Positions 24,770-60,034 of a stretch of 64,000 nucleotides of DNA are shown here, piece after piece. The first letter of the stretch is position 1. Each line of letters starts with the position of its first letter. The notes below the pieces were generated by a model. It was not told where the DNA came from. It saw only the letters and a list, made by a program, of their open reading frames with translations, and did no database searches. A program made the position numbers and the translations under genes. Source of the DNA: Candidatus Dormiibacterota bacterium (GTDB lineage: Bacteria; Chloroflexota; Dormibacteria; Aeolococcales; Aeolococcaceae); the NCBI GenBank assembly GCA_036844485.1, contig DAIUFS010000002.1, positions 11,085-75,084 of the forward strand. The letters run 5' to 3'.

Positions 24770-25699
24770 ATGACGCAGACCATTCGCCGCGGCAGCTTCC
24801 GCAGCCGCGGTCAGCGGCTCGCCTACACCATTCACGGCAGCGGAGATCGCCCGTTCGTCCTCCTGCCCGGCCTTCTGCTCCCGGCTCGGATGAACACGCC
24901 GCTGGCTGCGCACCTCGCCGAGCGCGGGCACCGCGTGATCCTGCTCGATCCGCTCGGCCAGGGGGGCTCTGCCCGCCCGATGGACATGTGGCGGTACTCG
25001 ATGACCCAGTTCGCGCGCGACGTGGTCGCCCTGCTCGACCATCTGAAACTCGACCAGGCGGTGGTGGGCGGAACCTCGCTCGGCGCCAACGTCACCCTGG
25101 AGGTCGCCTCGCTGGCCCCCGAACGGCTCCGCGCCATGGTGGTCGAGATGCCCGTCCTCGACAACGGGTTGGTGGCCAGCGCCATCACCTTTGCGCCGCT
25201 GCTCGTCTGGGTCACTCTGGGATGGCGGCTGATGCAGGTGGTGTCCAGATTGGCGCGGTTGATCCCATCGTCGCGGACGCCCTTCAACATCGACGTCCTT
25301 CTCGACGGGGTGCGGCAGGATCCGGGACCGAGCGGGGCGCTTCTCCAGGGGGTCTTCTTCGGTCGCACCGCCCCGCATCGGGATGAGCGGCGCACCTTCA
25401 CCGCCCCGGCCCTGGTGATCGGCCACCACCGTGACCCGGTTCACCCGTTCTCCGACGCCGGCATGCTGTCCCGGGAGCTCCCCAACGGCCGGCTCATCGA
25501 GGCCAGCTCGATCCTGGAGATGCGGATGCGCCCGGATCGCCTCTATGCCGAGATCGACGCCTTCCTCGACGAGGTGTGGGGTCCGCGGATGCGCGTGGTG
25601 CAGCGCCGGCGGCCCCGCGCCACGACCGCGCGCTCGGCGCGGCGGAGCACACGCCGGCCCGCGGTCGCCACGGCGAGGGCTCGGCGACCGACGTCCTGA
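24770..25699 (+). CDS. alpha/beta hydrolase fold protein with an Arg-rich C-terminal tail
   Basis: RPFVLLPGLL, nucleophile elbow VVGGTSLGA, HRDPVHPF. Start at the ATG at 24770. Confidence 0.8.
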   Translation: MTQTIRRGSFRSRGQRLAYTIHGSGDRPFVLLPGLLLPARMNTPLAAHLAERGHRVILLDPLGQGGSARPMDMWRYSMTQFARDVVALLDHLKLDQAVVGGTSLGANVTLEVASLAPERLRAMVVEMPVLDNGLVASAITFAPLLVWVTLGWRLMQVVSRLARLIPSSRTPFNIDVLLDGVRQDPGPSGALLQGVFFGRTAPHRDERRTFTAPALVIGHHRDPVHPFSDAGMLSRELPNGRLIEASSILEMRMRPDRLYAEIDAFLDEVWGPRMRVVQRRRPRATTARSARRSTRRPAVATARARRPTS

Positions 25700-25743
25700 G
25701 CAACCGTGTTGGGCTGGAACCGGGCCGGTATCCTTCGGCGGTC

Positions 25744-26778
25744 GTGTCCACCCGCGCGCCCGCCGACACCATACCGCCGCGCGGAGAGCGTCCCCGCGTG
25801 CTGAGTGGGATCCAGCCCACCTTCCAGCTCCACCTCGGCAACTACCTCGGCGCGCTGCGCCACTGGGCCCGCGAGCAGGACAGCTACGACAATTTCTTCT
25901 GCATCGTCGACCTCCACGCGCTCACCGTGGTGCCGGACCCCGAGCTGGTGCGGAGCAGCGTGCTCGAATTGGCAGCTCTCTATCTGGCGTGCGGGCTGAA
26001 CCCGGAGAAGAGCGTCATCTTCGTGCAGTCCCACGTCGCCGCGCACACTCAGCTGTGCTGGATCCTCGAGTGCCACACCCCGCTCGGGTGGCTGGAGCGG
26101 ATGACGCAGTTTCGAGCCAAGGCGGGAACCGGACGGGAGCGGGAGCGCGTTGCTGCCGGGCTGCTGACCTATCCGGACCTGATGGCGGCGGACATCCTCC
26201 TCTACGACGCCGACCTGGTTCCGGTCGGTGACGACCAGCGCCAGCACGTCGAGATCTGCCGCGACATCGCCCAGCGGATCAACAGCCTGCGCGGCGAGGT
26301 GTTCCGGCTCCCGCAACCCCTGATTCGCAGCACCGGGGCGCGGGTCATGGGCCTCGACGACCCCACCGCCAAGATGAGCAAGAGCACGGCGCTGGTCAAG
26401 CCGGGCCACGCCATCCTCCTGCTCGACCCGCCGGACACCGTCCGCCGCAAGATCGCCCGCGCTACGACGGACAACAATCCCGCCGTGGCCGAGCCGGTCG
26501 GCGCCGGGGTTGGCAACCTGCTCGACATCCATGCCGCCATCAGCGGCAAGACCAGGGCCGAGACGGTCGCGAACTTCAAGGGTGCGAGTTATGGTGCGCT
26601 TAAGGCCGCCGTGGCGGACGCGATCAACGAGGTGCTTGAACCCGTGCAGCGTCGATATCGCGATGTGCGCGCTGACGAAGCAGCCCTGCGCAGCGTCCTC
26701 GAGCGCGGCGCGGAGCATGCGGCCGCAGTCGCCGGCCCCACCCTGCTGCGCGTGCAGCGTGCGGTGGGACTCCGCTGA
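25744..26778 (+). CDS. trpS: tryptophan--tRNA ligase
   Basis: SGIQPTFQLHLGNYLGAL (HIGH-class motif), GDDQRQHVE, KMSKS. Start uncertain (GTG at 25744 chosen). Confidence 0.9.
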   Translation: MSTRAPADTIPPRGERPRVLSGIQPTFQLHLGNYLGALRHWAREQDSYDNFFCIVDLHALTVVPDPELVRSSVLELAALYLACGLNPEKSVIFVQSHVAAHTQLCWILECHTPLGWLERMTQFRAKAGTGRERERVAAGLLTYPDLMAADILLYDADLVPVGDDQRQHVEICRDIAQRINSLRGEVFRLPQPLIRSTGARVMGLDDPTAKMSKSTALVKPGHAILLLDPPDTVRRKIARATTDNNPAVAEPVGAGVGNLLDIHAAISGKTRAETVANFKGASYGALKAAVADAINEVLEPVQRRYRDVRADEAALRSVLERGAEHAAAVAGPTLLRVQRAVGLR

Positions 26779-27320: not shown

Positions 27321-28457
27321 TCAGCGCCGAGGGGCCAGGGCGGCGTCCACCTCCTCGAGCATGGCGGCCACCTCCGGCCTGGCAAAGTGGGCGCGGGCCG
27401 GCTCGAGGCGGTCGATGAGTCGCGCCGCCAGCGCATTCTTGGCGTCCACCGGGTGCAGCTTGCCGCGACCGTAGGCATCGACGAGCTCCGCGTACGTTTC
27501 GAAGGTGATCGGGCCGCCGTTGGCCGCGCTGCGCTCGACGCGCACCGGGGCGTCGTCGAGGGCGAACACGAGCTGCTCGAACCAGTTGAGCACGGGGTTG
27601 AAGCGCGTTTCGTCAGGGGGGCAGAAGGCCTTGGCGACCCGCCGCCTGATGGTGTCTGGATCATCGTGGATGAACACCGCGGAGGAGGGGTCGGATTTGC
27701 TCATCTTCAATGTCGACGTGTCGACGTCGTCGGGGAGCGGCCACACCGGGGGCTTGCGGAGGCCGAGCAACAGGGGATGGTGCACCGCAGCCGGCTTGAT
27801 GGTGCGTCCCTCGCTGTCGGTCAGCCGGTTGGTTCGGATCTTGGTGGCCACGTCGCGGGCGATGACGTGCGCCTTGCGCTGCTCCGTGCCGGCGTGGGCG
27901 AGGTTGATGCCCTGGGCAAAGATGTCAGCCGCCTGCATCGCCGGATAGATGAGCTTGGCGAAGTCCACCGAGTCGCTCTGATCGCGGCCCAGGATGCTGA
28001 TGCTGCGCAGCATCCGTGCCAGCGTGGTGTGGCGGCTCACCTCGATGACCGTGGCCCAGTAATCGGGGTTGGTCCGGTAGAGGTCGGTGCCGAGCACGAA
28101 GTGCACGCGGGAAGGGTCGGCACCGACCGCCAGCAGCGACGCTCGCATCGCCTCGGTGAAGTAGCCGGTGGCGATGCGCCGGATCACCTCCCGGTCGCCG
28201 CCGAGCTTGTCGTTGATCCAGGTGTGCCAGTCGGCGAGCAGGATATGGCAGTCGATGTCCGCTTCCAGGAAGTCCCGAACCTTGCCCATCGACACCAGCC
28301 CGGTGCCGAGGTGGACCTTGCCGGAGATCTCGAAGCCGATGTAGTGGCGGATGGGTGTCGGAGTGCCGAGCAGCTCGAGCAGCTCGGTGCGTCCCATCAC
28401 CTCAGCGGTGTTGCGCTCGATGAGCGCCATGCGATCGGCGGGACTGAGAGTGGACAT
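27321..28457 (-). CDS. tyrS: tyrosine--tRNA ligase, archaeal/eukaryotic type
   Basis: Collinear with my memory of M. jannaschii TyrRS: LIERNTAEV, HYIGFEISGKVHLGTG, LLADWHTW, IYPAMQAADI, EQRKAHVIARD, KMSKS...FIHDDPDTIRRRVAKAFCPP, LHPVDAKNALA. No bacterial S4-like C-domain. Confidence 0.85.
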   Translation of the reverse strand: MSTLSPADRMALIERNTAEVMGRTELLELLGTPTPIRHYIGFEISGKVHLGTGLVSMGKVRDFLEADIDCHILLADWHTWINDKLGGDREVIRRIATGYFTEAMRASLLAVGADPSRVHFVLGTDLYRTNPDYWATVIEVSRHTTLARMLRSISILGRDQSDSVDFAKLIYPAMQAADIFAQGINLAHAGTEQRKAHVIARDVATKIRTNRLTDSEGRTIKPAAVHHPLLLGLRKPPVWPLPDDVDTSTLKMSKSDPSSAVFIHDDPDTIRRRVAKAFCPPDETRFNPVLNWFEQLVFALDDAPVRVERSAANGGPITFETYAELVDAYGRGKLHPVDAKNALAARLIDRLEPARAHFARPEVAAMLEEVDAALAPRR

Positions 28458-29825: not shown

Positions 29826-30525
29826 CGGGCGCAGGGATCCCGGCGATTGACTCGCCGGAGGCGAAGCGGCTGTGCCCTTTCCCAATGACCACGGTGACGA
29901 CGCCCGGCCCGGCCGCCCACCAGTGGCCGGCGCGCCAGACCGCGGCAGTGCGCTCGTCCACCCCGACCAAGGTGGTGCCACCTCCAAGTGCCTGCTGCGC
30001 TGATGGAATCCAGCGCTCGCCGAACGTGTCGAAGTGGGGGAGAAGGGCGCAGTCCGGCACCACAGCGAGCGCGTCGGCAGCCCGGCGGGTGGTGTGGTCC
30101 GGCGAGCGGTCGCGCACCAGGGTCCAGCGACACAGCGCCATGGCGCCGGCGGACGAGCCCGCCAGCGCGGCACCAGCCTTCCAGGCGCTGACGATGGCCT
30201 CCCAGACTGGCGTACCGGACAGAAGCTGGACGGTGCGTCCCGGGTCGCCCCCGGCCAGGTACACGAGGCCGGCGGTGTGCGCAACCTCGACCGTGGCCGG
30301 CGCGGCGGCGTCCGACCGGGAGCGCACGCGCAGCTCGGTCACGTCCACGCCGAGCGTGGCGAACCATCGGCGCGCCGTCTCCGCCGCCTGCTCCGGGTGG
30401 GTGCGCACCGCGGCACACACCACGAACGCCGGCCGGCCGCCGGCGGCCTCGGCGAGCACGCGGTCCTGCTCGTCGTTGCCCGGTCCGAACTCGGCGCCGC
30501 CCACGAGCGCAAGAGGTCCGGACAT
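29818..30525 (-). CDS. peptidase S51 (dipeptidase E/cyanophycinase-like) family protein
   Basis: LALVGGAEF...LVYLAGGDP...AGSSAGAMAL (nucleophile Ser context). Confidence 0.72.
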   Translation of the reverse strand: MSGPLALVGGAEFGPGNDEQDRVLAEAAGGRPAFVVCAAVRTHPEQAAETARRWFATLGVDVTELRVRSRSDAAAPATVEVAHTAGLVYLAGGDPGRTVQLLSGTPVWEAIVSAWKAGAALAGSSAGAMALCRWTLVRDRSPDHTTRRAADALAVVPDCALLPHFDTFGERWIPSAQQALGGGTTLVGVDERTAAVWRAGHWWAAGPGVVTVVIGKGHSRFASGESIAGIPAPGA

Positions 30526-30584
30526 GACCGGGAGGATACGGCTCAGTCGGTCGGTCGCCTCCCGCTCCCTACACTGACGCGCGC

Positions 30585-31340
30585 ATGATCGACAGAGACA
30601 AGTACGCGGCGGCGGCCATCGTGTCGCGCCGCGACCTCGCCCCCGACCTCTGGGTGGTGCGGATCCGACCGGACTGCGAGCTGCCGTTCCGCCCCGGCCA
30701 GTACGTGACCCTGGGGCTGGAGCTGGACGGCCACATCGTCGAGCGGCCGTACTCGATCGCCTCCGATCCCGCTGAGGATGAGATCGAGCTCTTCATCGAG
30801 CGCGTCCCCGACGGGGAGCTGTCGGCTCCGCTCCACGACGTTCCCATCGGGGACACCACCCTGGTGCGCAAGCGGTGCAAGGGGCTGTTCCTCAAGGATG
30901 CCCCGGTGCTCGACCAGGCGCACGTGTTCGTGGCGACGGTCACGGGCATCGCGCCCTTCGTCAGCATCCTGCGCAGCCTGGCCCGGCGCCAGGCCAGCGG
31001 CGAGTGGGTCGCTGACCAGCCGGTGGTGGCCCTCCAGGGCGCCAGCCGCTCCGAAGAGCTCGGCTACGAGGAGGAGTTGCGCGCGCTGGACGACGCCTGC
31101 GACTGGTTCACGTACGTGCCCACCATCAGTCGCCCCTGGGACGATCCCGAGTGGTCGGGCGAGACCGGCCGCGTCGAGGATGTCCTGCGCAAGCACGCCG
31201 ACCTGGCTGGGCTGCGCCCCGGCCATGGTGCCATCTATCTGTGCGGGAATCCCGAGATGATCGGCAAGGCCCACGGCATCATGCGGCGCCGCGGGTTTGG
31301 CGACAAGGAGATCCGCGAAGAGCAGTACTGGCCGGACTGA
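30585..31340 (+). CDS. ferredoxin--NADP(+) reductase (Fpr-type FAD/NAD(P)-binding oxidoreductase)
   Basis: RPGQYVTLGL, RPYSIAS (FAD motif), TGIAPF, and LCGNPEMI near a C-terminal aromatic residue. Confidence 0.85.
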   Translation: MIDRDKYAAAAIVSRRDLAPDLWVVRIRPDCELPFRPGQYVTLGLELDGHIVERPYSIASDPAEDEIELFIERVPDGELSAPLHDVPIGDTTLVRKRCKGLFLKDAPVLDQAHVFVATVTGIAPFVSILRSLARRQASGEWVADQPVVALQGASRSEELGYEEELRALDDACDWFTYVPTISRPWDDPEWSGETGRVEDVLRKHADLAGLRPGHGAIYLCGNPEMIGKAHGIMRRRGFGDKEIREEQYWPD

Positions 31341-31366
31341 AAATCTGAGCACGCCCGGTCGGTCGC

Positions 31367-32074
31367 CTATTTGAACCCGTAGCGGCCCTCGTGGAAGTCG
31401 CCGGTCTCGACCCACTGGTCGATGACAAGGTCGACCACCGCGTCGTTGACCTCGGAGAGGCCGAGCGTGCGAGCGTTGCCCTCGACCGCTTCGAGCACCT
31501 GCCCGCGAACGAAGTCGGGGATGCGCTCGAAGCGGCTCCGCGCCGAGTCCGTCCACGGCAGCGCGTCGCGGTCACGCTCTTCGATGGCGTGCGACACCCG
31601 GCCCCAGAGCTCGTACTTGACCTCCATCTCGACCGGGGTGATGGTGGTGCCCAGCCCCAGCTTGCGAGCCGTCCATTCGACTCGCCATCGGGTCAGGTCA
31701 CGGCAGAACTCGGGCACCTCCGCCAACCTCGCCTCTGCCTCCGGCGTCCAGCTGAACACCACCTCGGTGCCGGTGCGGTCACTGAGTGGGTGGCCATAGC
31801 CGAGCTTCTTGCCGAGCGTCCGGACGAAGAGGTCGGTGATCTCTTCGACGCGATCGCGCTGGGCACGGGCTTCCACCACCCGTTCGGCCATGCCCGCGGC
31901 GCGCTCCGGGTCGATCCGGCTCACTGCCGCGCGATCGCGTCCCGTCTCAGCCGCGCGGTGGGCGTCCGCGGTCCAGGTGAGGGGCGGGTGGGCGGCGCCG
32001 ACGTGCACCGGACAGCCGGCCTGGTCGGCGTCGTGCACCACCGGGCAGCCAGGCTCGTCTCGCGTTTCGGACAT
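31367..32074 (-). CDS. PCP_red-domain protein (two protochlorophyllide-reductase-B C-terminal-like domains) with an N-terminal double GCPV motif
   Basis: FSWTPEAEARLAEVPEFCRDLTRW... and LPWTDSARSRFERIPDFVRGQVLEAVEGNARTLGL match the W-T-x-E-A...IP-x-F-V-R pattern. The N-terminus has GCPVVH and GCPVHV. Confidence 0.7.
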   Translation of the reverse strand: MSETRDEPGCPVVHDADQAGCPVHVGAAHPPLTWTADAHRAAETGRDRAAVSRIDPERAAGMAERVVEARAQRDRVEEITDLFVRTLGKKLGYGHPLSDRTGTEVVFSWTPEAEARLAEVPEFCRDLTRWRVEWTARKLGLGTTITPVEMEVKYELWGRVSHAIEERDRDALPWTDSARSRFERIPDFVRGQVLEAVEGNARTLGLSEVNDAVVDLVIDQWVETGDFHEGRYGFK

Positions 32075-32255
32075 CGGTCAACCCTCCCACGTGTCGCCGC
32101 GCTCGAGGTGATTCTACGCTGAGGTCGGCGGCGTCCCGACGCGGGCGCTCAGGCCCATGACCCCGCTCGCTATCATCGGACGACGCGGTTGCGAGTGGCG
32201 CTCCGGACCGGTCGCGCGCGGCGGTCGACGTTGCATCTGCCTGGCAGGGGAGCGG

Positions 32256-34325
32256 ATGTACTCCACCCTCTACGTCGCCCTCGACAACTCCGAGCACTCG
32301 GACGCCGCCAGCACGGTCGCCCTGGAGCTCGCCTCCGCCTTCGATGCCCGCGTCATCGGCATGCACGTGTACGCGGCGCGGATGCACGACTACCGGTTCA
32401 AGCAGATGGAGTACACGCTCCCCGAGGAGTACCAGGACGAGGCCGAGCTGCTCCGCCAGCGGCGCATCCACGACAGCCTGATCAGCACCGGCCTGGAGCT
32501 GATCAGCGACAGCTACACCGACGTGCTCCGCTACCGCTGTCTGGAGCGCGACGTGCGCTTCGAGGCGCGCATGCGCGACGGGCGCAACTGGGAGGAGCTG
32601 GTCGCCGACGTCGACGAGAGCAGCGACGTCGACCTGGTGATCATGGGCGCGCTCGGCACCGGCGCGGTCAAGGAGTCGCAGCTGGGCAGCGTCACCGACA
32701 GGGTGGCGCGACGCATCCGGCGCGATCTGCTCATCATCCGCAGCACCGGCGACGCCGCCATGGAGGGCGGCATCCTGGTGGCCGTCGACGGCTCACCGCA
32801 GTCGTTCGCCGGCCTGCGCACCGCCCTCGTCCTCGGCAAAGCGCTCGGCAAGCGCGTCGAGGCGGTGGCCGTCTACGACCCCTACCTGCACTACGCCGTC
32901 TTCAACGGCATCGTCGACGTGCTCTCGGAGAAGGCCTCGAAGATCTTCCGGTTCAAGGAGCAGGAGGCGCTCCACGAGGAGATCATCGACACCGGGCTCG
33001 CCAAGATCTACGAGTCCCACCTCCGCGTGGCCCGTGCCACCGCCGCCGAGGAGGGGGTCGACCTGCCCATCACCCTTCTCGACGGCAAGGCGTTCGAGAG
33101 GATCCTGCGCCACGCTCGCGAGACCCGCCCCTGGCTGCTGGTGCTCGGCCGCATCGGCGTCCACTCGGACGCCGCGATGGACATGGGCAGCAACACCGAG
33201 CAGCTGCTCCGGCTCGCTCCCTGCAACGTTCTGGTCAGCAGTGGCACGTTCACCCCACCCATCGACGTCCGCGCCGACGCCTCGGTGGTGTGGACACCGG
33301 AGGCCGAGGAGCGGATGGCAGCGGTGCCGGGCGGGGCGAGGGGCCTGGCACGGACCGCCGTGCTGCGCTGGGCGATGGAGCGAGGCCACAGCGTGGTCTC
33401 GTCCGGCGACGTGGCCACCGCGCTCGACGAGCTGATGCCGTTCGCACGCACCATGCGCCGCATCGCCGAGACCGCGGCCACCGTCGACTCCGCTCAGCGG
33501 GCCATGGTCGACGAGCCGCAGATCCAGGATGCACGCGCCGTCTGTCGCACCTGCGGGTACGCGGCGAGGAGCGACACCCCGCATCGCTGCCCGGTGTGCG
33601 ACAGCGACGCCGGGGCGTTCGAGCGCCTCGACAGCGACGCGCTCCGGGCCACGGCGGCCGGGGAGGGGGACGCGGCGCAGATCGCTTTTGACGGCGCCAA
33701 GCTGGGCTGGACAGTCGAGGCGCGCCGGCTGCTGCAGCAGCTCCCCGCCGGCTACCTGCGCCGCCGCGTCAAGGCGATCGTCGAGAAGCATGCGCGGACG
33801 CGGCGGCTGCCGGCGATCACCGCCGAGGTGGCCGAGCCGTTCGTGGCGCCCGAGCTCGACGCTCTCGACGTGAATGCCGGGCCGCATCGAGCCCCCTTGG
33901 GCGTCGAGGGGCACACCGGACCGCACGTCGACCAGCGCCGGCGCCTTCCCTGGACCGATGAGGCAGACGACCGCATCGAGCGCATTCCCGCGGGCTTCCT
34001 GCGCAACCTCGCCACCGAGCAGATCGAGCGCCTCGCCGTTGCCCTGGGCGCTCCGGAAGTGGGCGTGCTGCACGTCGAGGCCGGCATCGCTGAGGCGCGC
34101 GCCCGGATGCAGCGCGACGGTGTCGGGGCCGATCCCGCGGCGACCTGTCCCGTCGGGGCCGAGGGGGCGCAGGCTGCACCTGGGTGTCCGGTCCATCACC
34201 AGGCGGAGGGCACGGGGCGTTCCGGCGGTGCGGCGGCACCCCGAGGTGGCTCTCTCAACGAGATAACCGCCCCGGTCATCGACGACCTCGGCAGACGCAC
34301 GACCACGGCGCTGCCAGACGCCTGA
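32256..34325 (+). CDS. multidomain protein: 2 x universal stress protein domain + 3 x PCP_red-like domain + rubredoxin-like zinc ribbon + C-terminal double CPV motif
   Basis: USP motifs: LYVALDNSEHS...VIMGALGTG; ILVAVDGSPQS...LLVLGRIGVHS. PCP_red-like: VVWTPEAEERMAAVP, LGWTVEARRLLQQLPAGYLRRRV, LPWTDEADDRIERIPAGFLRN. Zinc ribbon: CRTCGY..x10..CPVCDS. Start set at the ATG at 32256. Confidence 0.75.
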   Translation: MYSTLYVALDNSEHSDAASTVALELASAFDARVIGMHVYAARMHDYRFKQMEYTLPEEYQDEAELLRQRRIHDSLISTGLELISDSYTDVLRYRCLERDVRFEARMRDGRNWEELVADVDESSDVDLVIMGALGTGAVKESQLGSVTDRVARRIRRDLLIIRSTGDAAMEGGILVAVDGSPQSFAGLRTALVLGKALGKRVEAVAVYDPYLHYAVFNGIVDVLSEKASKIFRFKEQEALHEEIIDTGLAKIYESHLRVARATAAEEGVDLPITLLDGKAFERILRHARETRPWLLVLGRIGVHSDAAMDMGSNTEQLLRLAPCNVLVSSGTFTPPIDVRADASVVWTPEAEERMAAVPGGARGLARTAVLRWAMERGHSVVSSGDVATALDELMPFARTMRRIAETAATVDSAQRAMVDEPQIQDARAVCRTCGYAARSDTPHRCPVCDSDAGAFERLDSDALRATAAGEGDAAQIAFDGAKLGWTVEARRLLQQLPAGYLRRRVKAIVEKHARTRRLPAITAEVAEPFVAPELDALDVNAGPHRAPLGVEGHTGPHVDQRRRLPWTDEADDRIERIPAGFLRNLATEQIERLAVALGAPEVGVLHVEAGIAEARARMQRDGVGADPAATCPVGAEGAQAAPGCPVHHQAEGTGRSGGAAAPRGGSLNEITAPVIDDLGRRTTTALPDA

Positions 34326-34326
34326 C

Positions 34327-35580
34327 ATGCTCGGCCTCCAGGTCACCACGCCCGATTTCCCCGGCATCGGCAACAACGCGTCGGTGGGAATCGTCTTCCT
34401 GGTCCACATTCTCATCGCCGAGTTCAGCCTCGGGGCCATCACTCTGGCGGTGGCGGCGGAGTGGCACCACGTGCGCACCGGCGACGAGCGCACCGCCCGA
34501 TACGCGCGCAGTCTGGCCAACACCTATTACCTGGTCTTCAGCCTGGGTGCCACCTTCGCGGTGTTCGCCGTCGTGCTGCTCACCGGCCTGTGGGCCAACG
34601 AGTTCGGACAGCTGGTCAACAAGTTCGTCTGGCTGGTGGCGTTCGCCTTCAGCCTGTTCTTCGTGCTGGTGCCGCTCCTGGTCTGGTATCGCAATACCTT
34701 CACATCCATGGCTCCGCGCCGTCACGTCCTCCTCGGGACGGCGGTGGGCGTTCTCCAGAGCATGTTCATGGTGCTCATCGTTGGCATCGACGCGTACCTC
34801 ATCAATCCCGTCAACGCCGGGCTCACGGAACCGGCGTTCAACCCGGTGTACTGGCCGCTGCTCATCCACCGTCTCATCGGCAACGTGAGCTGGACCGCGC
34901 TGTTCTGCGCGGCGTACGCGGCTGTCCGGCTGCGCGGAGGTCGCGGTGACGCCCCAGAGCGCGCGTTCCAATCCTGGGCGGCCCGGGTCAACCTGCGCAT
35001 CGGCCTGCTCACCGGCCTGCTCATGCCGATCGTGGGCTTTGCGCTCATCGAGGTGATCCGCCAGAGCGAGCCGGGCTACTTCGACAACCTTCTCAGCGGC
35101 GGGACCGCCGCGTTCATGGTGGCCCAGGAGTGCCTGGTGGGGGTCATGTTCATCGGCGGCAACATCGCCCTGGCCAGCGAGGACGGCGGCCCGCGCGAGT
35201 GGTCGATGGCCAGCCGGGCAGCGATCGCCGTGTCGGTCGCCGGGATGACGCTGGCCGCCCTTCCCAGCGCGGTGCTCGGTGGCGACCTCAACGTGCTGCG
35301 CTACTGGGGGCTGGGCGCCGCCACCGTGGTGACCGCCGCGCACACGCTCTCACGTCTGCGCGGCCGCCGCCGGCGCCAGGACGACTCGCTGCGCGTCACC
35401 GGCTCGGTGTCGCGGATCGGGCGCAACGCGGTGCTCGCCGTCGGCACCGTTGCGGTGGTCACGTCCCTGCTGATGGGCTACATCAAGGAGCACGCCCGCG
35501 GCGACTACGCGGTGTATGGCGAGCTGCGCCAGGTCGACGCTCATCAGCCCTATCAACCCCCGCAGAGCCTCTACCCGTGA
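34327..35580 (+). CDS. cytochrome bd subunit I (CydA)-like membrane protein, paralogue 1, short Q-loop
   Basis: LVHILIAEF (TM1 His), LIHRLIGNV (TM5 His) and C-terminal GYIKEHARGDYAVYGEL (compare the CydA E-GRQPW-x-V-x-G motif). 417 aa, about 9 TM segments. Confidence 0.7.
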   Translation: MLGLQVTTPDFPGIGNNASVGIVFLVHILIAEFSLGAITLAVAAEWHHVRTGDERTARYARSLANTYYLVFSLGATFAVFAVVLLTGLWANEFGQLVNKFVWLVAFAFSLFFVLVPLLVWYRNTFTSMAPRRHVLLGTAVGVLQSMFMVLIVGIDAYLINPVNAGLTEPAFNPVYWPLLIHRLIGNVSWTALFCAAYAAVRLRGGRGDAPERAFQSWAARVNLRIGLLTGLLMPIVGFALIEVIRQSEPGYFDNLLSGGTAAFMVAQECLVGVMFIGGNIALASEDGGPREWSMASRAAIAVSVAGMTLAALPSAVLGGDLNVLRYWGLGAATVVTAAHTLSRLRGRRRRQDDSLRVTGSVSRIGRNAVLAVGTVAVVTSLLMGYIKEHARGDYAVYGELRQVDAHQPYQPPQSLYP

Positions 35581-35834
35581 CCCCGCTGCTGGTCGTCCGA
35601 GCCGCGGAATTCCAGGGCGCCTTGTACTACTCGCTGCTGCTGTTCGTCATCCTCTTTCTCGTCCTGCTGGGCATCGGCTACGCCCTGGTCGGAGTTCGCG
35701 GGCTCTGGCGCAGCGGCGAACGAGGTCCGGCCACAGTTCTCGGCGGAGCCCTCACCGTCGCCTTTCTCGCTCTCGTCGGGATGTACGTCGTCGCCGTCGG
35801 CGGGCTGTTCGCGGCTCCCGGGCTCGGGACGTGA
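35577..35834 (+). CDS. small two/three-TM membrane protein (85 aa), unknown function
   Basis: GTGA overlaps on both ends. Hydrophobic stretches LYYSLLLFVILFLVLLGIGYALV and ALTVAFLALVGMYVVAVGGLF. Confidence 0.5.
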   Translation: MTPLLVVRAAEFQGALYYSLLLFVILFLVLLGIGYALVGVRGLWRSGERGPATVLGGALTVAFLALVGMYVVAVGGLFAAPGLGT

Positions 35835-36328
35835 AGCAGCTCACCCGTCGCGAGATGCTGATCCGGGGCACCGGACTGGGCATGGGGCTGGTCGGGGTGA
35901 TGCTCAGCGTTCCCGCGGTGGGCTTCCTGCTCAGCCCCCTCTTCACCAAGCAGAAGGTTGTGTGGGTGACGGTCGGACCGATCGACAACGTGCCGGTCAA
36001 TCAGCCGACCCCCCTGATCGCGGAGGTCCCGGTTGGAACCGGGTACCCGACGCCGCCCGTCAAGCGAATTGTGTACGTGGTCAAGACCCCGGACGGGCAG
36101 ACCCGCGCGCTCAGCAACATCTGCACGCACATGCAGTGCGACGTGCACTGGGACCCTGCCCTGGGCAATTTTCTCTGCCCGTGCCACGGAGGCCTGTACG
36201 ACATCGAGGGCAGGAACGTTGGTGGGCCTCCCCCGCAACCACTTCCGCAGTGGGTGCACCGAATCCACACCGACGCCGAGGGCCGCACCATCCTCGAGAT
36301 CGAGAACAAGCTCGACGAGTCGATCTGA
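35831..36328 (+). CDS. Rieske [2Fe-2S] subunit with Tat signal
   Basis: Twin-arginine motif TRREMLIRG followed by a TM segment. Cluster ligands CTHMQC and CPCHGG. Confidence 0.88.
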   Translation: MKQLTRREMLIRGTGLGMGLVGVMLSVPAVGFLLSPLFTKQKVVWVTVGPIDNVPVNQPTPLIAEVPVGTGYPTPPVKRIVYVVKTPDGQTRALSNICTHMQCDVHWDPALGNFLCPCHGGLYDIEGRNVGGPPPQPLPQWVHRIHTDAEGRTILEIENKLDESI

Positions 36329-36339
36329 ATGCACCGCTC

Positions 36340-37536
36340 ATGATTGTCAGCCGCTGGCTCACACGACCACTGAAGGCGCGACTGCGCGCGGGGATGGAGT
36401 GGTTCGACGACCGCACCGGAGCCACCGAGCTTCTCCACAAGGGGCTCTATGAGGCAGTCCCCAAGAAGGGTGGCTGGGCGTATGCGCTGGGCAGCGCCAC
36501 CCTGGCGCTGATCCTGCTCCAGCTCTTCAGCGGGATCTTCCTGCTGCTCGACTACGTGCCCTCGGTCACCGACGCCTTCAACAGCCTGGATTACCTGCGC
36601 AGTGGCGACGCCTTCGGCGCCTGGGTGCGCGGGCTCCACCTCTGGGGCTCGTACATGCTCATCTTCGTGATCGGGCTGCACATGCTGCGCACCTTCCTCT
36701 CGGCGAGCTACAAGCGGCCGCGTGAGCTCAACTGGGTGACGGGAGCGCTCCTCTTCTTCCTGGTGCTTGGGCTGGCCATCACCGGCGCGATGCTGCCCTG
36801 GGACGAGGCGGCGTACTGGACGACCACGGTGGTGACCAACATCCCCCACTACCTCCCGGTGATCGGGGACGGCATCCGGACGCTCTGGCGCGGGGGGGAC
36901 TTCGTCGGACCGATCACCCTGACGCGCACCTTCGCCATCCATGTCTGGGTGCTGCCCTTCCTGCTGTTCACCCTCATCGGCGGTCACCTCTACCTTCTCC
37001 GTCGCCACGGCGAGTTCGGTGCCTGGGTCAACTACGACAGCGCTCCCGGCGAGGAAGGGGAGAGGCAGATCGCCGAGCGGATTCGCCGCGCCGAGCCCCC
37101 CTACCCGACCAAGCGGATCTCACGCCGCTACGCGGCGCCGAGCGAGACGGTGCCGTTCTTTCCCGACCAGATCTTCAAGGACGTGGTGTTGAGCACCGCC
37201 CTGGTCGCGGTCATCTTCGTCATGGGACTGATCTCCGGAGCGCCGCTCGACCAGGCCGCCAATCCGGCGACGTTCAGCTACGTGCCCACGCCGGAGTGGT
37301 TCTTCCTCCCCCTCGACCAGTTCATGGTCGTGGCACCGGCCAACCCGCTCATCGCCATTGGGGTCTTCGGCGTTCTCGGCCTGGGCGCAGCCCTGATGGT
37401 GCTCCTGCCGTTCATCGATCGCTCCCCGGAGCGCCGTCCACTGCGCCGCCCTGAGGTGATCGTGCCCGCCCTCTTCATGGCCTTCACGGTGATCTTCTTC
37501 GCTGTTCTCGGCATCAACCGGCTGTACAACCTGTGA
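36340..37536 (+). CDS. cytochrome b (fused b6 + subunit-IV-like) of a Rieske/cyt b complex
   Basis: Two bis-His pairs (HLWGSYMLIFVIGLH; HVWVLPFLLFTLIGGH) and a Qo-site PEWF (PEWY-type) motif. Confidence 0.9.
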   Translation: MIVSRWLTRPLKARLRAGMEWFDDRTGATELLHKGLYEAVPKKGGWAYALGSATLALILLQLFSGIFLLLDYVPSVTDAFNSLDYLRSGDAFGAWVRGLHLWGSYMLIFVIGLHMLRTFLSASYKRPRELNWVTGALLFFLVLGLAITGAMLPWDEAAYWTTTVVTNIPHYLPVIGDGIRTLWRGGDFVGPITLTRTFAIHVWVLPFLLFTLIGGHLYLLRRHGEFGAWVNYDSAPGEEGERQIAERIRRAEPPYPTKRISRRYAAPSETVPFFPDQIFKDVVLSTALVAVIFVMGLISGAPLDQAANPATFSYVPTPEWFFLPLDQFMVVAPANPLIAIGVFGVLGLGAALMVLLPFIDRSPERRPLRRPEVIVPALFMAFTVIFFAVLGINRLYNL

Positions 37537-38978
37537 GCCCGCGCATCCTTCTCTCATCCCTGTCGCCGGTGAGCGGCAACATCGTCACCAACGGCGTCCT
37601 GGTCGCCGTGGTGGCGCTTCTGCACATCCAGATCGCCGCCTTTCTCACCGGATCATCGACGCTGGCGCTGGTCTCCGAAGCGGTTTCGATGGCCCGCGGC
37701 GACGAGCGCCACGGCCGCGTCGCCCACATGCTGGTGAAGGGGCAGGTCTACGTCTTCAGCTTCGGCTCGGCGGTGGCCATCTTCTTCATGATCTTCGTGC
37801 TCCTCGGCCTGTGGGGCATCTTCTGGACCGCCTTGCAGCAGATCGCCTTCTGGGTGCTGGTCTTCGAGGCGGCCATGTTTCTCACCGAGATCGTGCTGCT
37901 GTACAGCCTGTACGCCAACTGGGATCGGCTGCAGGCGCATCGCCGTGCCCGCCTCGCCATGCTGCTCCTGCTCAACATCTCGCTGTGGTGGCAGATGTTC
38001 CTCATCGACGTGGTGGCGTCCTTCATGCTCACGCCCAACGGCGGCGACGTCAGCATCCTCAATCAGATCCTCAACCCCACCAACCTGCCGCTGACCATCC
38101 ATCGCACCATCGGCAACGTCGCCTGGGCGGGCGCGGTGGTCGCCTTCATCGGTGGCTTCAACTACCTGCGTCTCACCAGGCGGCAGCGTGAGCCCACACC
38201 CGACGCTCCGCAGTCGATGCGACCGCTGCGGTCGATCGGCGCCATGGCCGCCGGCCACCTGGAATGGGAGGCACAGCGCACGGAGATTCTCCACTGGGAG
38301 TGGGTGGCGCACTGGGGAGTGATCTGGGCGGTGGCGATGACACTGCTCCAACCATGGGTCGGCTACTCCTACGCCAAGGAGGTCCAGCTCCACGCCTACG
38401 GAGCCTGGTACACGATGATGTTCGGCGACCTCTCCAACGTGTTTCTGCTGCAGATCTTCCTGCTCGGCTCGATCTTCACACTCGGAGCGCTGTACTTCTG
38501 GCGTCGCATGGTGCGCTCCGGTGCCGCGCATGCCCGCCGTCAGCTGATCCTGGCGGTGGCCCTCATCCTCATGACCGTGCTGGCGGTGCAGCCGGCGTGG
38601 TTCGCTCCGACCTACGCGGATGCCATCGCCGCCGCGGGTAACCGGGCATGGTGGGATGGGGGCCTGCTCAACCCCATCGGCGACTTCATCCCCTTCAAGG
38701 CGGCGGCCCTGATCGGCATGGTGCTGTTCGGCCTCTGGTCGGTGACCAGCTATCTGGCGGCGGTGTCGCGCGGCCGGGTCAAGCCCGGCGGCAGCGGCCG
38801 GGGTGCGCAGCGAGCCGCGCTGGTGATCGGCGTGGCGGTGAGCATGATGATGCTGGTCATGGGCGTGATCCGTGAGCATTCACGCCAGCCCTACCTTGTT
38901 TACGGCGAGATCACGCTGCACCAGCAGATCACCAACCACGCGCCGTCGCCGACCTCTCTCCAACAGAGCCAACCGTGA
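37533..38978 (+). CDS. cytochrome bd subunit I (CydA)-like membrane protein, paralogue 2
   Basis: LLHIQIAAF, VFEAAMFLTE, TIHRTIGNV and C-terminal GVIREHSRQPYLVYGEI. Aligns without gaps to paralogue 1 over TM1-TM5. Confidence 0.7.
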   Translation: MSPRILLSSLSPVSGNIVTNGVLVAVVALLHIQIAAFLTGSSTLALVSEAVSMARGDERHGRVAHMLVKGQVYVFSFGSAVAIFFMIFVLLGLWGIFWTALQQIAFWVLVFEAAMFLTEIVLLYSLYANWDRLQAHRRARLAMLLLLNISLWWQMFLIDVVASFMLTPNGGDVSILNQILNPTNLPLTIHRTIGNVAWAGAVVAFIGGFNYLRLTRRQREPTPDAPQSMRPLRSIGAMAAGHLEWEAQRTEILHWEWVAHWGVIWAVAMTLLQPWVGYSYAKEVQLHAYGAWYTMMFGDLSNVFLLQIFLLGSIFTLGALYFWRRMVRSGAAHARRQLILAVALILMTVLAVQPAWFAPTYADAIAAAGNRAWWDGGLLNPIGDFIPFKAAALIGMVLFGLWSVTSYLAAVSRGRVKPGGSGRGAQRAALVIGVAVSMMMLVMGVIREHSRQPYLVYGEITLHQQITNHAPSPTSLQQSQP

Positions 38979-39403
38979 GGATCCCGCTGGGCGCAGTCGC
39001 GCTACGCATTCCCATCTTCCTCTCCGCGCATGAGGAGTTGCGCACAGCCATCGAGCCGCCCTGGCCGCGATGGATGCGTGACCTCTACCAGCTCGAGCAG
39101 GCGCAGGACGAGGGCATCGACGTCGACGCCGAGGAGACCACCGTTCCGGCAGCGCTCGGCGCGCTGTCGTCACGGCTGCGCCAGCGGCTGGAGCTGATCT
39201 CCTCGGTTGCCAGTGGACTGCGGCGCGACGGATGGGCTCTTGACATCGACGGCGACTGTCTGGTGGCCAGCAGGGTGAGCAACCCGCGGCACGCGCTGGA
39301 GATGCTCGAGGACGCGGGACTGGCGGGACCGCTGTGCGCCGTAGCCGACCTCGACGAGTCCGGGTGGCCGCGGCTGTACATCGGTCTGGCGAGCACGGCA
39401 TGA
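38975..39403 (+). CDS. hypothetical protein (142 aa)
   Basis: GTGA overlap upstream and ATGA overlap downstream. No family recognised. Confidence 0.5.
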   Translation: MRIPLGAVALRIPIFLSAHEELRTAIEPPWPRWMRDLYQLEQAQDEGIDVDAEETTVPAALGALSSRLRQRLELISSVASGLRRDGWALDIDGDCLVASRVSNPRHALEMLEDAGLAGPLCAVADLDESGWPRLYIGLASTA

Positions 39404-39771
39404 GCGCCACTGTCCTCATTGCCGAGGACGAACCGATGATCGGGCGGATCCTCGCCGAGAAGCTGACCCGCGAGGGCTATAAGGTGTTGCGGACCGCCAC
39501 CATCGAGGGCTTGATGTCCGCGCTGGCAATCTCTGACGTCGCGCTCGTCGATGCCACTCTCGACGGCGACGGCATCGACGCCATGCAGGGTCTCGCGGCC
39601 GCGGCGATCCATCCCCGCGCCGGCTGGTTCGCCATGGTGGAGAGCCGCGCCGCCGACCAGGGCATCCGTGCGGTTCGCGCCGGCGCCGCGGGGGTGATCA
39701 TCAAGCCGTTCAAGCCGACGGCGGTGGCGGCCAAGGTGGCCACCCTGCTCGCCACGGTGGCGGTGCCGTGA
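39400..39771 (+). CDS. stand-alone response-regulator receiver domain
   Basis: VLIAEDEP (acidic pair), ALVDATLDGDG (acceptor Asp context), VIIKPF (conserved Lys). Confidence 0.8.
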   Translation: MSATVLIAEDEPMIGRILAEKLTREGYKVLRTATIEGLMSALAISDVALVDATLDGDGIDAMQGLAAAAIHPRAGWFAMVESRAADQGIRAVRAGAAGVIIKPFKPTAVAAKVATLLATVAVP

Positions 39772-40742
39772 CCCTGCTCGCCGGCGCCGTCGCGGACGAT
39801 CCCACGGACGAGCACCTGGCCACCGAGGTCGTGCGCGCCCGAGGTGTGCTGCGTCGTTACCGCAATGGCCGTGGGGTGGGCCCGGTGGACCTCTGTCTGC
39901 GGGCCGGCGAGGCGTTCGCTCTGATGGGCCGCAACGGCTCCGGCAAGACCACGCTGCTCCGCCTGCTCGCCACCGTGACGCGTCCGCACAGCGGCGAGCT
40001 GCGCTGGTTCGGCGGCGACGCGACGCGGGCCCGGGCACATCTCGGGCTGGCTCTCGACGCGGCCATGGAGGACGCCGGGCTGACGGGACGGCAGGCGACC
40101 CACTTCTGGTGCGCGCAGTGGATCGCCGATGCGGCGGAGGTGTCGTCCCGCACCGATCTGGTGTTGCGGAGGCTGGGACTGGCCGGGGCCGCCGATGAGC
40201 CCGTCGGCTCGTACTCGTACGGGATGCGCCGCCGCCTCGCCCTTGCCGCCGCCGTTGTCCACGAGCCCGCTCTGGCGCTGCTCGACGAACCCACCGCCGG
40301 GCTCGACCCCGACGGGTGCACCGAGCTGGGCGAGGTGATCGCCGAGCGATCACGGCACGGCCTCAGCACGGTGATCGCCAGCAACGATCCCGGCTTCGTC
40401 GAGGCGGTCGCCGACCGCGTCGCGTTCCTCGAGGAGGGGGCTGTGGTGCGCTGCGCGTCGCCGCGTGACCTGCTCGCCGGCCTCCCCCAGGGACGTGTCG
40501 CGGAGCTTGTCATCGAGGAAGGTTGCTCTTTGGCGGCGCTGCGCGCGGTGCCGGGTGTCGTGGATGTGACCGACGACGGCGGCGCAGCCAGGGTTCGCTT
40601 CGACGGCGACCACACCATCGCCGCCCTGGTTGCGGCGGCCGACGCGCCGGGCGGCCGCCTCCGCGAGCTGCGCCTGCGCCGCCCCGACCTCGCCGACTGC
40701 TTCCATGACCTCACCGGTCGCGCCCTGCGGGAACAGACGTGA
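39768..40742 (+). CDS. ABC transporter ATP-binding protein (ABC-2/DrrA-like)
   Basis: Walker A GRNGSGKTT, signature YSYGMRRRL, Walker B LALLDEPTAGLD. Confidence 0.85.
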   Translation: MTLLAGAVADDPTDEHLATEVVRARGVLRRYRNGRGVGPVDLCLRAGEAFALMGRNGSGKTTLLRLLATVTRPHSGELRWFGGDATRARAHLGLALDAAMEDAGLTGRQATHFWCAQWIADAAEVSSRTDLVLRRLGLAGAADEPVGSYSYGMRRRLALAAAVVHEPALALLDEPTAGLDPDGCTELGEVIAERSRHGLSTVIASNDPGFVEAVADRVAFLEEGAVVRCASPRDLLAGLPQGRVAELVIEEGCSLAALRAVPGVVDVTDDGGAARVRFDGDHTIAALVAAADAPGGRLRELRLRRPDLADCFHDLTGRALREQT

Positions 40743-41497
40743 TCGGAGATGCCGCCGCCCTGCGGGCGACCGCCTGGCGCTCGCGCAGGATGCCGCGCAG
40801 CGTGGCCGCGCGCGAGCTCGCCATCGTGCTCAGCCGGCCACGTGCGCTGGCCATCAAGGCGGGGCTGCCCCTTGCCCTGGCGGTCGTGCTGGTCGCGGGT
40901 CATGCACCGACCTTCTGGGCGGGGATGCTGCTCACCGTCCTGGTCGCCATGGTCGGTGCGGTGGGCACGGCGGTGACGGTGAGCCGGGCCAGGGACGCCG
41001 GTTTTCTGACACGACTGGCAGCAACTCCCGGGTCTCGGCCGCGGTTGCTGGTCGGGTGGGTCCTGGCCGCCGCCGCGGTGGACGTGGTCCAGCTGCTACC
41101 GGTGGCGCTGGCTGCCTGGATCGACGGAGGCGGAGGCGCCACCGAGCTCGTGGTGCTGGTCACCGTTCTCGCCGCCACACTGGTGGTCACCAATGTGCTG
41201 GGCAGTCTCATCACCCTGGCCGCGGCGAGCGCCGCCGAGGTGCTGCTCGATGTCGTCGTCGTGCTCGCGCCCCTTCTCTACCTGGGCGGCCTGTTCACCG
41301 GTGTCCCGGCAGCCGGATGGCGAGCCTGGGTAGCCGCGGTCGACCCGTTCAGCCATCTCCACTCCGCATTCATCGGCGTGCTCGGGGGATCGGCGACGTA
41401 TCCCGGTGGCGTCGATGTGGTCGCGGCGCTGGGAGCGGCAGCGGCGGCGACCGCCGTCCTCGCCGGTCTCAGCCGGCGCATCCTGGAACGTGATTGA
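40739..41497 (+). CDS. ABC-2 type transporter permease
   Basis: Six hydrophobic segments. GTGA overlap with the ATPase gene. Confidence 0.62.
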   Translation: MIGDAAALRATAWRSRRMPRSVAARELAIVLSRPRALAIKAGLPLALAVVLVAGHAPTFWAGMLLTVLVAMVGAVGTAVTVSRARDAGFLTRLAATPGSRPRLLVGWVLAAAAVDVVQLLPVALAAWIDGGGGATELVVLVTVLAATLVVTNVLGSLITLAAASAAEVLLDVVVVLAPLLYLGGLFTGVPAAGWRAWVAAVDPFSHLHSAFIGVLGGSATYPGGVDVVAALGAAAAATAVLAGLSRRILERD

Positions 41498-41498
41498 T

Positions 41499-42161
41499 GT
41501 GCCGCGGCGCGTCCGCCGGGGCGCCGCGCTGCTGGTTGCCATGACCGCGCTGTCCGGTTGTGGGTCTGTGTCCTCCGTCCTCGATGCCGGCGCGCTGGGC
41601 CTGCCGTCGCGCAGCTCACCCGCCGCCCTGGCCACCGCCACCGTGTCGACCAGTCCAGACGGCGGCATCTACCGCAACCCCGACCACCTCGAGGTCATGC
41701 TGGTGGCGCGACACAACGTCGACTCCATCGCCGGCCAGCTCGGATCAGCGTCCTCGACGTGGACGCAGCTGCGCAGCTTCGGCGACTTCACCGTGATCGC
41801 CCTGCGTCTTCGCGATGACGGCAAGGTGAGCTCGGATCCGCAGCTCGCCGACCTGCAGATGGCCAGCGACTACGCCCCCACAGGCACCGCCAGCGGACCG
41901 CTGCGCCACTTCTACCACCCCACCTTTCCGCTGGCGCTGGTCGCCGACTCGAACCCCGGCGACGGCTGCAGCATCCATCTCGATCCCGGCCACAGCGGCG
42001 TCGCCATCCTCATCTACCCGCCGGTCAACCTGCCCAGCACGCTGGTGTGGGGCCGCTTCGGGGACTTCGTGCTCAGCGTGCCCACCGGCGGAGCGCTGCC
42101 GCCGCTGTCGGGCGGGCTGCACGCCGAGGCCTGCACCCGGCCCGCGGCGTCGCCGACGTGA
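41499..42161 (+). CDS. predicted lipoprotein, unknown function
   Basis: Signal peptide with lipobox (RRGAALLVAMTALSGCG). The start could be the GTG at 41490 or at 41499. Confidence 0.6.
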   Translation: MPRRVRRGAALLVAMTALSGCGSVSSVLDAGALGLPSRSSPAALATATVSTSPDGGIYRNPDHLEVMLVARHNVDSIAGQLGSASSTWTQLRSFGDFTVIALRLRDDGKVSSDPQLADLQMASDYAPTGTASGPLRHFYHPTFPLALVADSNPGDGCSIHLDPGHSGVAILIYPPVNLPSTLVWGRFGDFVLSVPTGGALPPLSGGLHAEACTRPAASPT

Positions 42162-60022: not shown

Positions 60023-60034
60023 GATCGCCCGGTC

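Follow-up and report, generated by a model that had tools for sequence, protein, structure and literature searches.

Gene content of the cluster

The window, a stretch of 64,000 nt of the Candidatus Dormiibacterota contig DAIUFS010000002.1 (coordinates are positions within it), carries a respiratory gene cluster in which a Rieske/cytochrome b pair is bracketed by two proteins related to subunit I (CydA) of cytochrome bd oxidases, designated CydA-like 1 and CydA-like 2. The listing of open reading frames (ORFs) and the reading of the gene junctions delimited a + strand run of translationally coupled genes, longer than the five-gene core described in an original prediction made from the sequence alone. 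The order and coordinates of those five genes, the twin-arginine signal of the Rieske protein and the fusion of the cytochrome b agreed with that prediction according to the ORF listing, the junctions and Pfam.

The core consists, all on the + strand, of CydA-like 1 (34327-35580; OR-N5b-type, hereafter the b-type subunit), a two-helix protein of 85 amino acids (aa) (35577-35834), the Rieske protein (35831-36328), the fused cytochrome b (36340-37536) and CydA-like 2 (37533-38978; OR-N5a-type, the a-type subunit, presumed to be catalytic). GTGA overlaps join CydA-like 1 to the 85-aa gene (at 35577), the latter to the Rieske gene (at 35831) and the cytochrome b gene to CydA-like 2 (at 37533); the sole gap within the core, of 11 nt, lies ahead of the cytochrome b gene. 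Beyond the limits originally described, the operon reaches upstream to a gene for a USP/PCP_red protein and downstream through orf142, a receiver domain and an ABC-2-type transporter.

The predicted absence of a c-type cytochrome was borne out by a six-frame scan of positions 30500-40000, which gave no CxxCH motif. The predicted absence of CydB held as well: every ORF of the operon was accounted for and the gaps were of 11 nt or less, so that no coding space is left over in which a CydB gene could fit. An overlooked CydB is ruled out in this way, and an overlooked c-type cytochrome by the scan and by the survey of 101 complete cores given below.

Affiliation of the flanking proteins to the cytochrome bd superfamily

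The proposed membership of the two flanking proteins in the cytochrome bd subunit I superfamily was confirmed, on the basis of Pfam for CydA-like 1 and of profile searches against the PDB and structure searches. CydA-like 1 matched Pfam Cyt_bd_oxida_I (PF01654) at E 1.6e-10, its 40.6 bits lying above the cut-off of 26.2. The Pfam check suggested with the original prediction thus succeeded for CydA-like 1, the Rieske protein and the cytochrome b and failed for CydA-like 2, which matched neither a Pfam nor an NCBIfam model. The two proteins are full-length paralogues (26% identity, E 1e-22), and the family profile of CydA-like 2 matched the solved CydA of Geobacillus thermodenitrificans, 5doq_A (E 6.2e-14), and six other CydA chains, with a sequence alignment confined to the first five helices.

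The AlphaFold models consisted of about ten transmembrane helices for CydA-like 2 (pLDDT 86.9, pTM 0.88) and about ten long helices for CydA-like 1 (pLDDT 78.5, pTM 0.82). When both models were compared with the PDB by Foldseek, the ten best matches were all CydA chains (probability 1.00, E down to 6e-8, and 1.5e-7 for CydA-like 2), with CydB chains ranking below; TM-scores were 0.54-0.68 for the best E. coli and M. smegmatis qOR2 CydA chains and lower for some others. The connection between transmembrane helices 6 and 7 (TM6 and TM7) measured about 30 residues in the model of CydA-like 2 and about 13 in that of CydA-like 1. Neither protein has a Q-loop, in agreement with the short equivalent described before.

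Conserved residues of the a- and b-type subunits

The motifs named in the original prediction for the CydA-like proteins, the Rieske and cytochrome b ligands and PEWF were found, and were conserved at 97% or more in 38-47 orthologues. In the alignment of CydA-like 2 to solved structures, H31 corresponded to His21 of 5doq_A and His19 of E. coli CydA, the active-site haem ligand in TM1; E112 and E119 to Glu101 and Glu108 of 5doq_A and Glu99 and Glu107 of E. coli; and H190 to His186 of both. E448 aligned weakly with the Glu of the EVGRQPW motif (E445).

The two paralogues are not equivalent, a point that goes beyond the original prediction: only CydA-like 2 keeps the proton-channel glutamates. 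CydA-like 1 retains H27 (the equivalent of H19), H181 (H186), H133, M383 and E388, and lacks both the E99/E107 pair, with A107 and L114 in those columns, and a Met in the M296 column. The difference extends to other loci. Among 20 a-type subunits, H31, E112, H190, M296, K389, M443, R447 and E448 were invariant; among 21 b-type subunits, H27, H181 and M383 were invariant, the Glu pair was absent and the Glu445 equivalent was Glu in nine, CydA-like 1 included (E388). Both haem-ligand histidines were invariant in all 41 subunits compared.

In the model of CydA-like 2, M296 ends a short periplasmic helix directly before TM7, which we take to be the place of Met393, a ligand of haem b558, in the canonical CydA topology. 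M296 is therefore a candidate equivalent of Met393 in the a-type subunits, as judged from the alignment and the predicted topology and not from coordinates.

Rieske protein, cytochrome b and 85-aa protein

The Rieske protein (Pfam PF00355, E 2.2e-11) has a twin-arginine signal/anchor, TRREML (R6 and R7), a box I of sequence CTHMQC and a box II of sequence CPCHGG. The ligands C98, H100 and C103 and C116, C118 and H119, together with R6 and R7, were conserved at 97% or more, and box II (36176-36193, residues 116-121) was CPCHGG in 108/111 Rieske genes of such clusters. Its nearest solved relatives are b6f-type Rieske proteins. A Gly in place of the Ser163 of high-potential bc1 Rieske proteins is associated with a low-potential, menaquinol-type centre; since this replacement is present in the protein sequence, it suggests a centre of that type here.

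The cytochrome b is composed of a b6-like N-terminal part fused to a subunit-IV-like C-terminal part, and matched Pfam Cytochrome_B (E 6.6e-42) and Cytochrom_B_C (22.2 bits, cut-off 20.7). The best PDB matches of the N-terminal part were cytochromes b6 (E 1.8e-44). The haem histidines 100, 114, 201 and 216 have the b6-type spacing. The protein has no cysteine and therefore cannot bind haem ci. Its Qo motif is PEWF (37291-37302, residues 318-321), a variant of PEWY; PEWF, and not PEWY or PDWY, was present in 116 of the 123 cytochrome b genes of such clusters, and is not mentioned in the main text of a 2014 survey of Qo motifs (PMC4122944). Rubrobacter xylanophilus and some metagenome loci have separate petB and petD genes instead.

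The 85-aa protein has two hydropathy peaks, predicted to be transmembrane helices, contains neither His nor Cys, and matched no Pfam or NCBIfam model. Orthologues were detectable in many loci, and a gene of 78-86 aa stands at the equivalent place in Ktedonobacterales. It is probably a small structural subunit.

Conservation and distribution of the cluster

The gene cluster is real and conserved across phyla. A scan of one genome per species yielded 53 loci, almost all from Dormibacterota, and a scan of metagenomes with the family profile yielded 80 further loci; the same order was present in these 53 species genomes and 80 metagenome contigs, so the synteny is not unique to this contig; uniqueness was what the original prediction had named as speaking against it. 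All genome loci of sufficient length shared the order divergent PCP_red gene, USP/PCP_red gene, CydA-like 1, small protein, Rieske protein, cytochrome b, CydA-like 2, orf142 and receiver; in Dormibacterota loci the ABC pair and a lipoprotein-like gene come next downstream. Two Ktedonobacterales contigs carried USP/PCP_red, (the ABC pair,) CydA-like, the 78-86-aa gene, Rieske, cytochrome b and CydA-like, in that order.

Complete cores numbered 101, drawn from Dormibacterota genomes, metagenomes, Ktedonobacterales and R. xylanophilus. The b-type CydA-like, Rieske, cytochrome b and a-type CydA-like genes were present in all of them (101/101), down to 27-30% identity. A CxxCH motif in a + strand ORF of at least 80 aa was found in only three of the 101, and the lack of haem c is therefore a trait of the family. 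The family is small, given that a search of 1.84 billion cluster representatives with CydA-like 2 retrieved only 210 relatives at E ≤ 0.001.

Assignment to OR-N5a and OR-N5b

The novelty implied by the original prediction did not stand, as OR-N5a/OR-N5b proteins associated with petA, petB and petD had already been published and the same gene order is found in R. xylanophilus. In the work of Murali, Gennis and Hemp (bioRxiv 10.1101/2021.01.16.426971), the bd superfamily is divided into qOR, OR-C and OR-N; OR-N5a and OR-N5b are described as proteins of about ten helices without a quinol site, forming an a/b pair that arose by duplication and is associated with petA/petB/petD; and it is concluded that they probably use quinol as donor. 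The reference proteins given there are those of R. xylanophilus, WP_143528031.1 (N5a) and WP_143528035.1 (N5b), and the phylum table marks OR-N as present in Dormibacterota.

The features of the present cluster agree with that description: two paralogues, a Glu pair in the a-type subunit only, no Q-loop, about ten helices, and a Rieske/cytochrome b pair in the operon. The residue numbering of a representative protein (P0132) is that tabulated for N5a (H24, E104, E111, H183 and E406), and a search from it retrieved the R. xylanophilus proteins. The chromosome of R. xylanophilus AA3-22 (AP019791.1) carries a protein at the N5b position (439 aa), Rieske, petB, petD and a protein at the N5a position (441 aa), in that order, which fits the accession spacing of four between the N5a and N5b references. 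CydA-like 2 aligned over its full length with the N5a-position protein (P0419; 33% identity, E 4e-65) and CydA-like 1, also over its full length, with the N5b-position protein (28% identity, E 4e-25). A neighbour-joining tree built from 41 subunits of diverse loci, both upstream and downstream ones, separated the two positions in 44/50 bootstraps.

The N-terminal half of CydA-like 1 scored somewhat higher against N5a than against N5b, so simple best-match orthology was ambiguous for this protein and was set aside. Its assignment to N5b follows from the full-length alignment, the operon position, the loss of the Glu pair and the tree. By sequence comparison, CydA-like 2 is thus assigned to OR-N5a and CydA-like 1 to OR-N5b, without use of the authors' own hidden Markov models. 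The cluster belongs to a published, biochemically uncharacterised operon type; among the papers found by a literature search on Dormibacterota, cytochrome bd and Rieske, none combined all three.

Comparison with related systems

The order N5b, Rieske, petB, petD, N5a is shared with R. xylanophilus. The present cluster differs from it in the fusion of petB and petD, in the 85-aa subunit between the N5b and Rieske genes, in the His133 and Glu388 of the b subunit, where R. xylanophilus has Asn and Ser, and in about 40 extra residues inserted between TM5 and TM6 of the a subunit; the USP/PCP_red, orf142, receiver and ABC-2 genes of the operon are absent from R. xylanophilus. At the R. xylanophilus locus (L137, 5197-10460 in AP019791.1), an unannotated membrane protein of 206 aa precedes N5b and a hydrophobic ORF of 43 aa follows N5a.

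Among other bd-like pairs, the TO_4 cluster of Ca. Manganitrophus noduliformans combines two clade-V bd-like proteins with a canonical Complex III and its TO_3 cluster combines the same pair with ACIII, both being transcribed in strain Mn1, and in Nitrospirales an OR-N5 CydAA' lies directly downstream of ACIII. These clusters resemble the present one, by description and not by sequence, in having two bd-like paralogues linked genetically to a module that oxidises quinol; they differ in the phylum and in that the partner can be ACIII. In Caldivirga maquilingensis, CydAA' (qOR4a/qOR4b), whose activity as an oxygen reductase is a subject of bioRxiv 10.1101/2021.01.16.426971, is likewise a heterodimer of two CydA paralogues and not of CydA and CydB, and its second paralogue keeps the His19 equivalent. 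Unlike the a-type subunit described here, qOR4a has its own quinol site and eight helices, and it has no Rieske/cytochrome b partner.

With the canonical CydAB(X) oxidases (6rko, 5doq, 7nkz) CydA-like 2 shares the subunit I fold and the equivalents of His19, Glu99, Glu107, His186 and Glu445. It differs from them in the absence of CydB and of the Q-loop, in a donor that would not be a bound quinol, and in a sequence similarity limited to the first five helices. The Rieske/cytochrome b module is similar to cytochrome b6f, which has the closest cytochrome b, the same type of His spacing and the closest Rieske protein, and is distinguished from it by the lack of cytochrome f and of a Cys for haem ci, by the fusion of b6 and subunit IV and by PEWF in place of PEWY. 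Rieske boxes, the four haem histidines and the Qo motif are shared with the bc1, b6f and bcc complexes, whereas a c1, f or dihaem c subunit is missing. Obligate supercomplexes of complexes III and IV that work without a soluble cytochrome c are the actinobacterial bcc-aa3 and the ACIII-aa3 of Flavobacterium johnsoniae. A functional analogy with these (7rh5, 6btm) is proposed, in that a quinol-oxidising module would be wired directly to a terminal oxidase; they use c-type haems and a haem-copper oxidase, neither of which is encoded in the cluster.

Proposed function

The structural part of the original reading, two bd subunit-I paralogues bracketing a Rieske/cytochrome b pair that lacks a c-type cytochrome, was confirmed. 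The role of terminal oxidase is the best reading and one that we infer, as we do the physical association of the subunits, the path from the Rieske centre to haem b, O2 as the acceptor and the roles of the accessory genes. We consider it rather probable that the cluster encodes one membrane respiratory complex of the OR-N5a/OR-N5b and petABD type, a quinol:O2 oxidoreductase free of cytochrome c, with an electron path from Rieske to bd. The bd-like pair has no Q-loop and so needs an outside donor, and the Rieske/cytochrome b pair has no c-type partner and so needs an outside acceptor; these complementary gaps, the invariant synteny and the translational coupling argue for a single complex. Murali et al. 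reached a like inference for OR-N5a/b, and the OR-N5 pairs of Nitrospirales and Ca. Manganitrophus and the CydAA' of Caldivirga speak in its favour.

In such a complex, the Rieske/cytochrome b module, with its b6-like character and its PEWF Qo site, would oxidise membrane quinol, probably menaquinol, by a Q cycle. One electron would be recycled through the two b haems of the cytochrome b, and the other would leave the Rieske cluster for a b-type haem in the bd subunit-I heterodimer, with no c-type cytochrome in between, and onward to the O2 site of CydA-like 2, where O2 would be reduced to water. CydA-like 2 is proposed as the O2 reducer because its equivalents of His19, Glu99/Glu107, His186 and Glu445 build the O2 site and proton channel of bd oxidases. 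CydA-like 1 would stand in for CydB and, as two haem-ligand histidines are kept, may itself carry haem. The 85-aa protein would serve as a small structural subunit of the complex, and the USP/PCP_red protein, orf142, the receiver and the ABC-2 transporter as regulatory or assembly accessories. If the protons for water were drawn from the cytoplasm through the Glu channel, the charge yield might, by analogy, be about 2 per electron, versus 1 for an ordinary bd oxidase.

Several points weigh against this reading. The second proton-channel Glu (E119) is Glu in just 11 of the 20 a-type subunits, and Murali et al. (bioRxiv 10.1101/2021.01.16.426971) give no Met393 equivalent for N5a. The literature search found no biochemical study of any OR-N5 enzyme, and according to the literature on ACIII and OR-N5 of Nitrospirales the oxygen affinity of OR-N enzymes is not known. 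Additionally, the USP/PCP_red gene is missing from one clade that bears the core (L076-L086, L091, L115) and is therefore not essential to the core.

A more ambitious version is tentative and, in our estimation, rather doubtful. It would have the cluster encode an oxidase free of copper and haem c that runs a Q cycle and so, per electron, conserves about double the energy that an ordinary bd oxidase does; both paralogues would bear haem, the b-type subunit, in which H27, H181 and M383 are kept in all lineages, would replace c1 or f as the acceptor of the Rieske protein, and the USP/PCP_red protein and the ABC-2 transporter would form a dedicated system of tetrapyrrole sensing and assembly.

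The cluster could instead encode two separate, co-expressed enzymes, the Rieske/cytochrome b pair reducing a diffusible carrier encoded elsewhere, such as a cupredoxin or a HiPIP, which would feed an OR-N5a/b oxidase. The occurrence of OR-N5 pairs with ACIII agrees with this, as it indicates that the oxidase module is portable. However, the core order is invariant and tightly coupled in all complete cores, Pfam and NCBIfam revealed no candidate carrier gene within the conserved cluster, and a conserved small membrane subunit sits between the two modules; an arrangement of separate enzymes is thus improbable.

A complex built as proposed that would, in place of O2, reduce NO, H2O2, peroxynitrite or some further oxidant, or would serve mainly in detoxification or stress survival, is given only a small probability. 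Canonical bd oxidases show side activities toward reactive species, the E107 position is variable among the a-type subunits, the first gene of the operon encodes a tandem USP protein similar to the dormancy-linked Rv2623, and a receiver domain is also encoded, all of which would suit such a role. The a-type subunits, however, invariantly hold the equivalents of His19, Glu99, His186 and Glu445 of the O2 site, and CydAA', a relative, is regarded as reducing oxygen.

It is very unlikely that the two CydA paralogues act as scaffolds or transporters without haem and that the cluster encodes no oxidase at all, or, as a variant, that it encodes a quinone reductase running in reverse. CydA-like 2 does fall below the Pfam model, and its first five helices alone align by sequence with solved CydA; yet both haem-ligand histidines are kept in 41/41 subunits, the fold matches over the whole chain are with CydA and not with transporters, and a periplasmic electron-input module is not encoded. 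An assembly chimera or an accident of this contig has a negligible probability, being refuted by the synteny survey of 53 genome and 80 metagenome loci, which includes the closed chromosomes OY970307.1 and AP019791.1.

Oxygen reductases fall into only three superfamilies, and OR-N is a large branch of one of them that has remained uncharacterised. A single complex of the kind proposed here would represent a third way of joining complex III chemistry to the reduction of O2, without cytochrome c or copper, and would bear on the respiration of Dormibacterota, Ktedonobacteria and Rubrobacter in nutrient-poor or low-oxygen soils. Handles on the function of OR-N are offered by R. xylanophilus, a cultivable host with the same core, by the list of invariant residues and by the conserved accessory set (USP/PCP_red and ABC-2).

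Accessory genes

The longer operon, including the USP/PCP_red and ABC-2 set, appears to be new, as far as can be told from the available text of the papers defining the family, where it is not mentioned. Its first gene encodes the USP/PCP_red protein (+ strand, 32157 to 34325), placed in the operon because its stop lies 1 nt before the start of CydA-like 1 (TGAcATG). On the basis of the sequence, the true start is probably the ATG at 32256, preceded by GGGGAG. The protein carries two USP domains (Pfam Usp, E 1.4e-37) and three PCP_red domains (Pfam PCP_red, E 2e-22), together with a Cys4 ribbon like that of rubredoxin and CPV motifs at the C-terminus, and its USP part resembles the tandem USP Rv2623 (2jax/3cis). 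PCP_red is, according to Pfam and NCBIfam, the C-terminal domain of the DPOR BchB subunit. The gene precedes the core in Dormibacterota and Ktedonobacterales as well as in further clades. A literature search on the combination of PCP_red and USP gave nothing relevant.

A divergent gene (- strand, 31367-32074) encodes a protein of 235 aa with two PCP_red domains (Pfam, E 2e-15) and the N-terminal Cys-Pro motifs GCPVVH and GCPVHV. Most Dormibacterota loci have this gene in the same place, and an accessory or regulatory role is probable. Cys-Pro motifs thus occur in pairs (CPV, then H or G) at the C-terminus of the USP/PCP_red protein and at the N-terminus of the divergent protein, and are mostly conserved in the orthologues; we take them to resemble haem regulatory motifs. 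Next to the divergent gene, a ferredoxin-NADP reductase-like gene (+ strand, 30585-31340; FAD_binding_6 and NAD_binding_1) was found, conserved there only in some Dormibacterota loci, mostly those of closer relatives.

Downstream of CydA-like 2, whose stop it overlaps by GTGA, orf142 (+ strand, 38975-39403) encodes a soluble protein of 142 aa with no Pfam or NCBIfam match and no significant relative in the PDB. It is followed, with an ATGA overlap, by a stand-alone receiver domain of 123 aa without an output domain (+ strand, 39400-39771; Pfam Response_reg, E 6.6e-10). Both genes are conserved only within Dormibacterota. The ABC pair comprises a DrrA-like ATPase (+ strand, 39768-40742; Pfam ABC_tran, E 3.2e-26), joined to the receiver gene by a GTGA overlap, and an ABC-2-type permease (+ strand, 40739-41497; Pfam ABC2_membrane, E 2.3e-8), the gene of which overlaps that of the ATPase. 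In Dormibacterota the pair follows the core; in other lineages, Ktedonobacterales and another clade (loci L054, L087-L112, L123), it stands after the USP/PCP_red gene and ahead of the first CydA-like gene. It travels with the cluster yet changes position, as would be expected if the two were functionally linked; from the example of CydDC or CcmAB, one may speculate on a role in cofactor handling or export, or in assembly.

The last gene of the run is a lipoprotein-like ORF (+ strand, 41490 or 41499 to 42161), with an 8-nt overlap or a 1-nt gap after the permease gene depending on the start. It has an LSGC lipobox after a basic/hydrophobic leader, RRVRRGAALLVAMTALSGC, and its conservation behind the ABC-2 permease is limited to Dormibacterota. 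No Pfam or NCBIfam match was obtained for this ORF, nor for orf251.

Other features of the window

No further terminal oxidase was found among the window genes that were scanned. Two genes of the class I tRNA synthetase type lie less than 2 kb apart on opposite strands, at 25435-26778 (+), which matched Pfam tRNA-synt_1b, and at 27321-28457 (-), assigned by eye only. At the end of the window, NuoF-like and NuoG-like genes (+ strand, 60023-63256) form part of a complex I operon.

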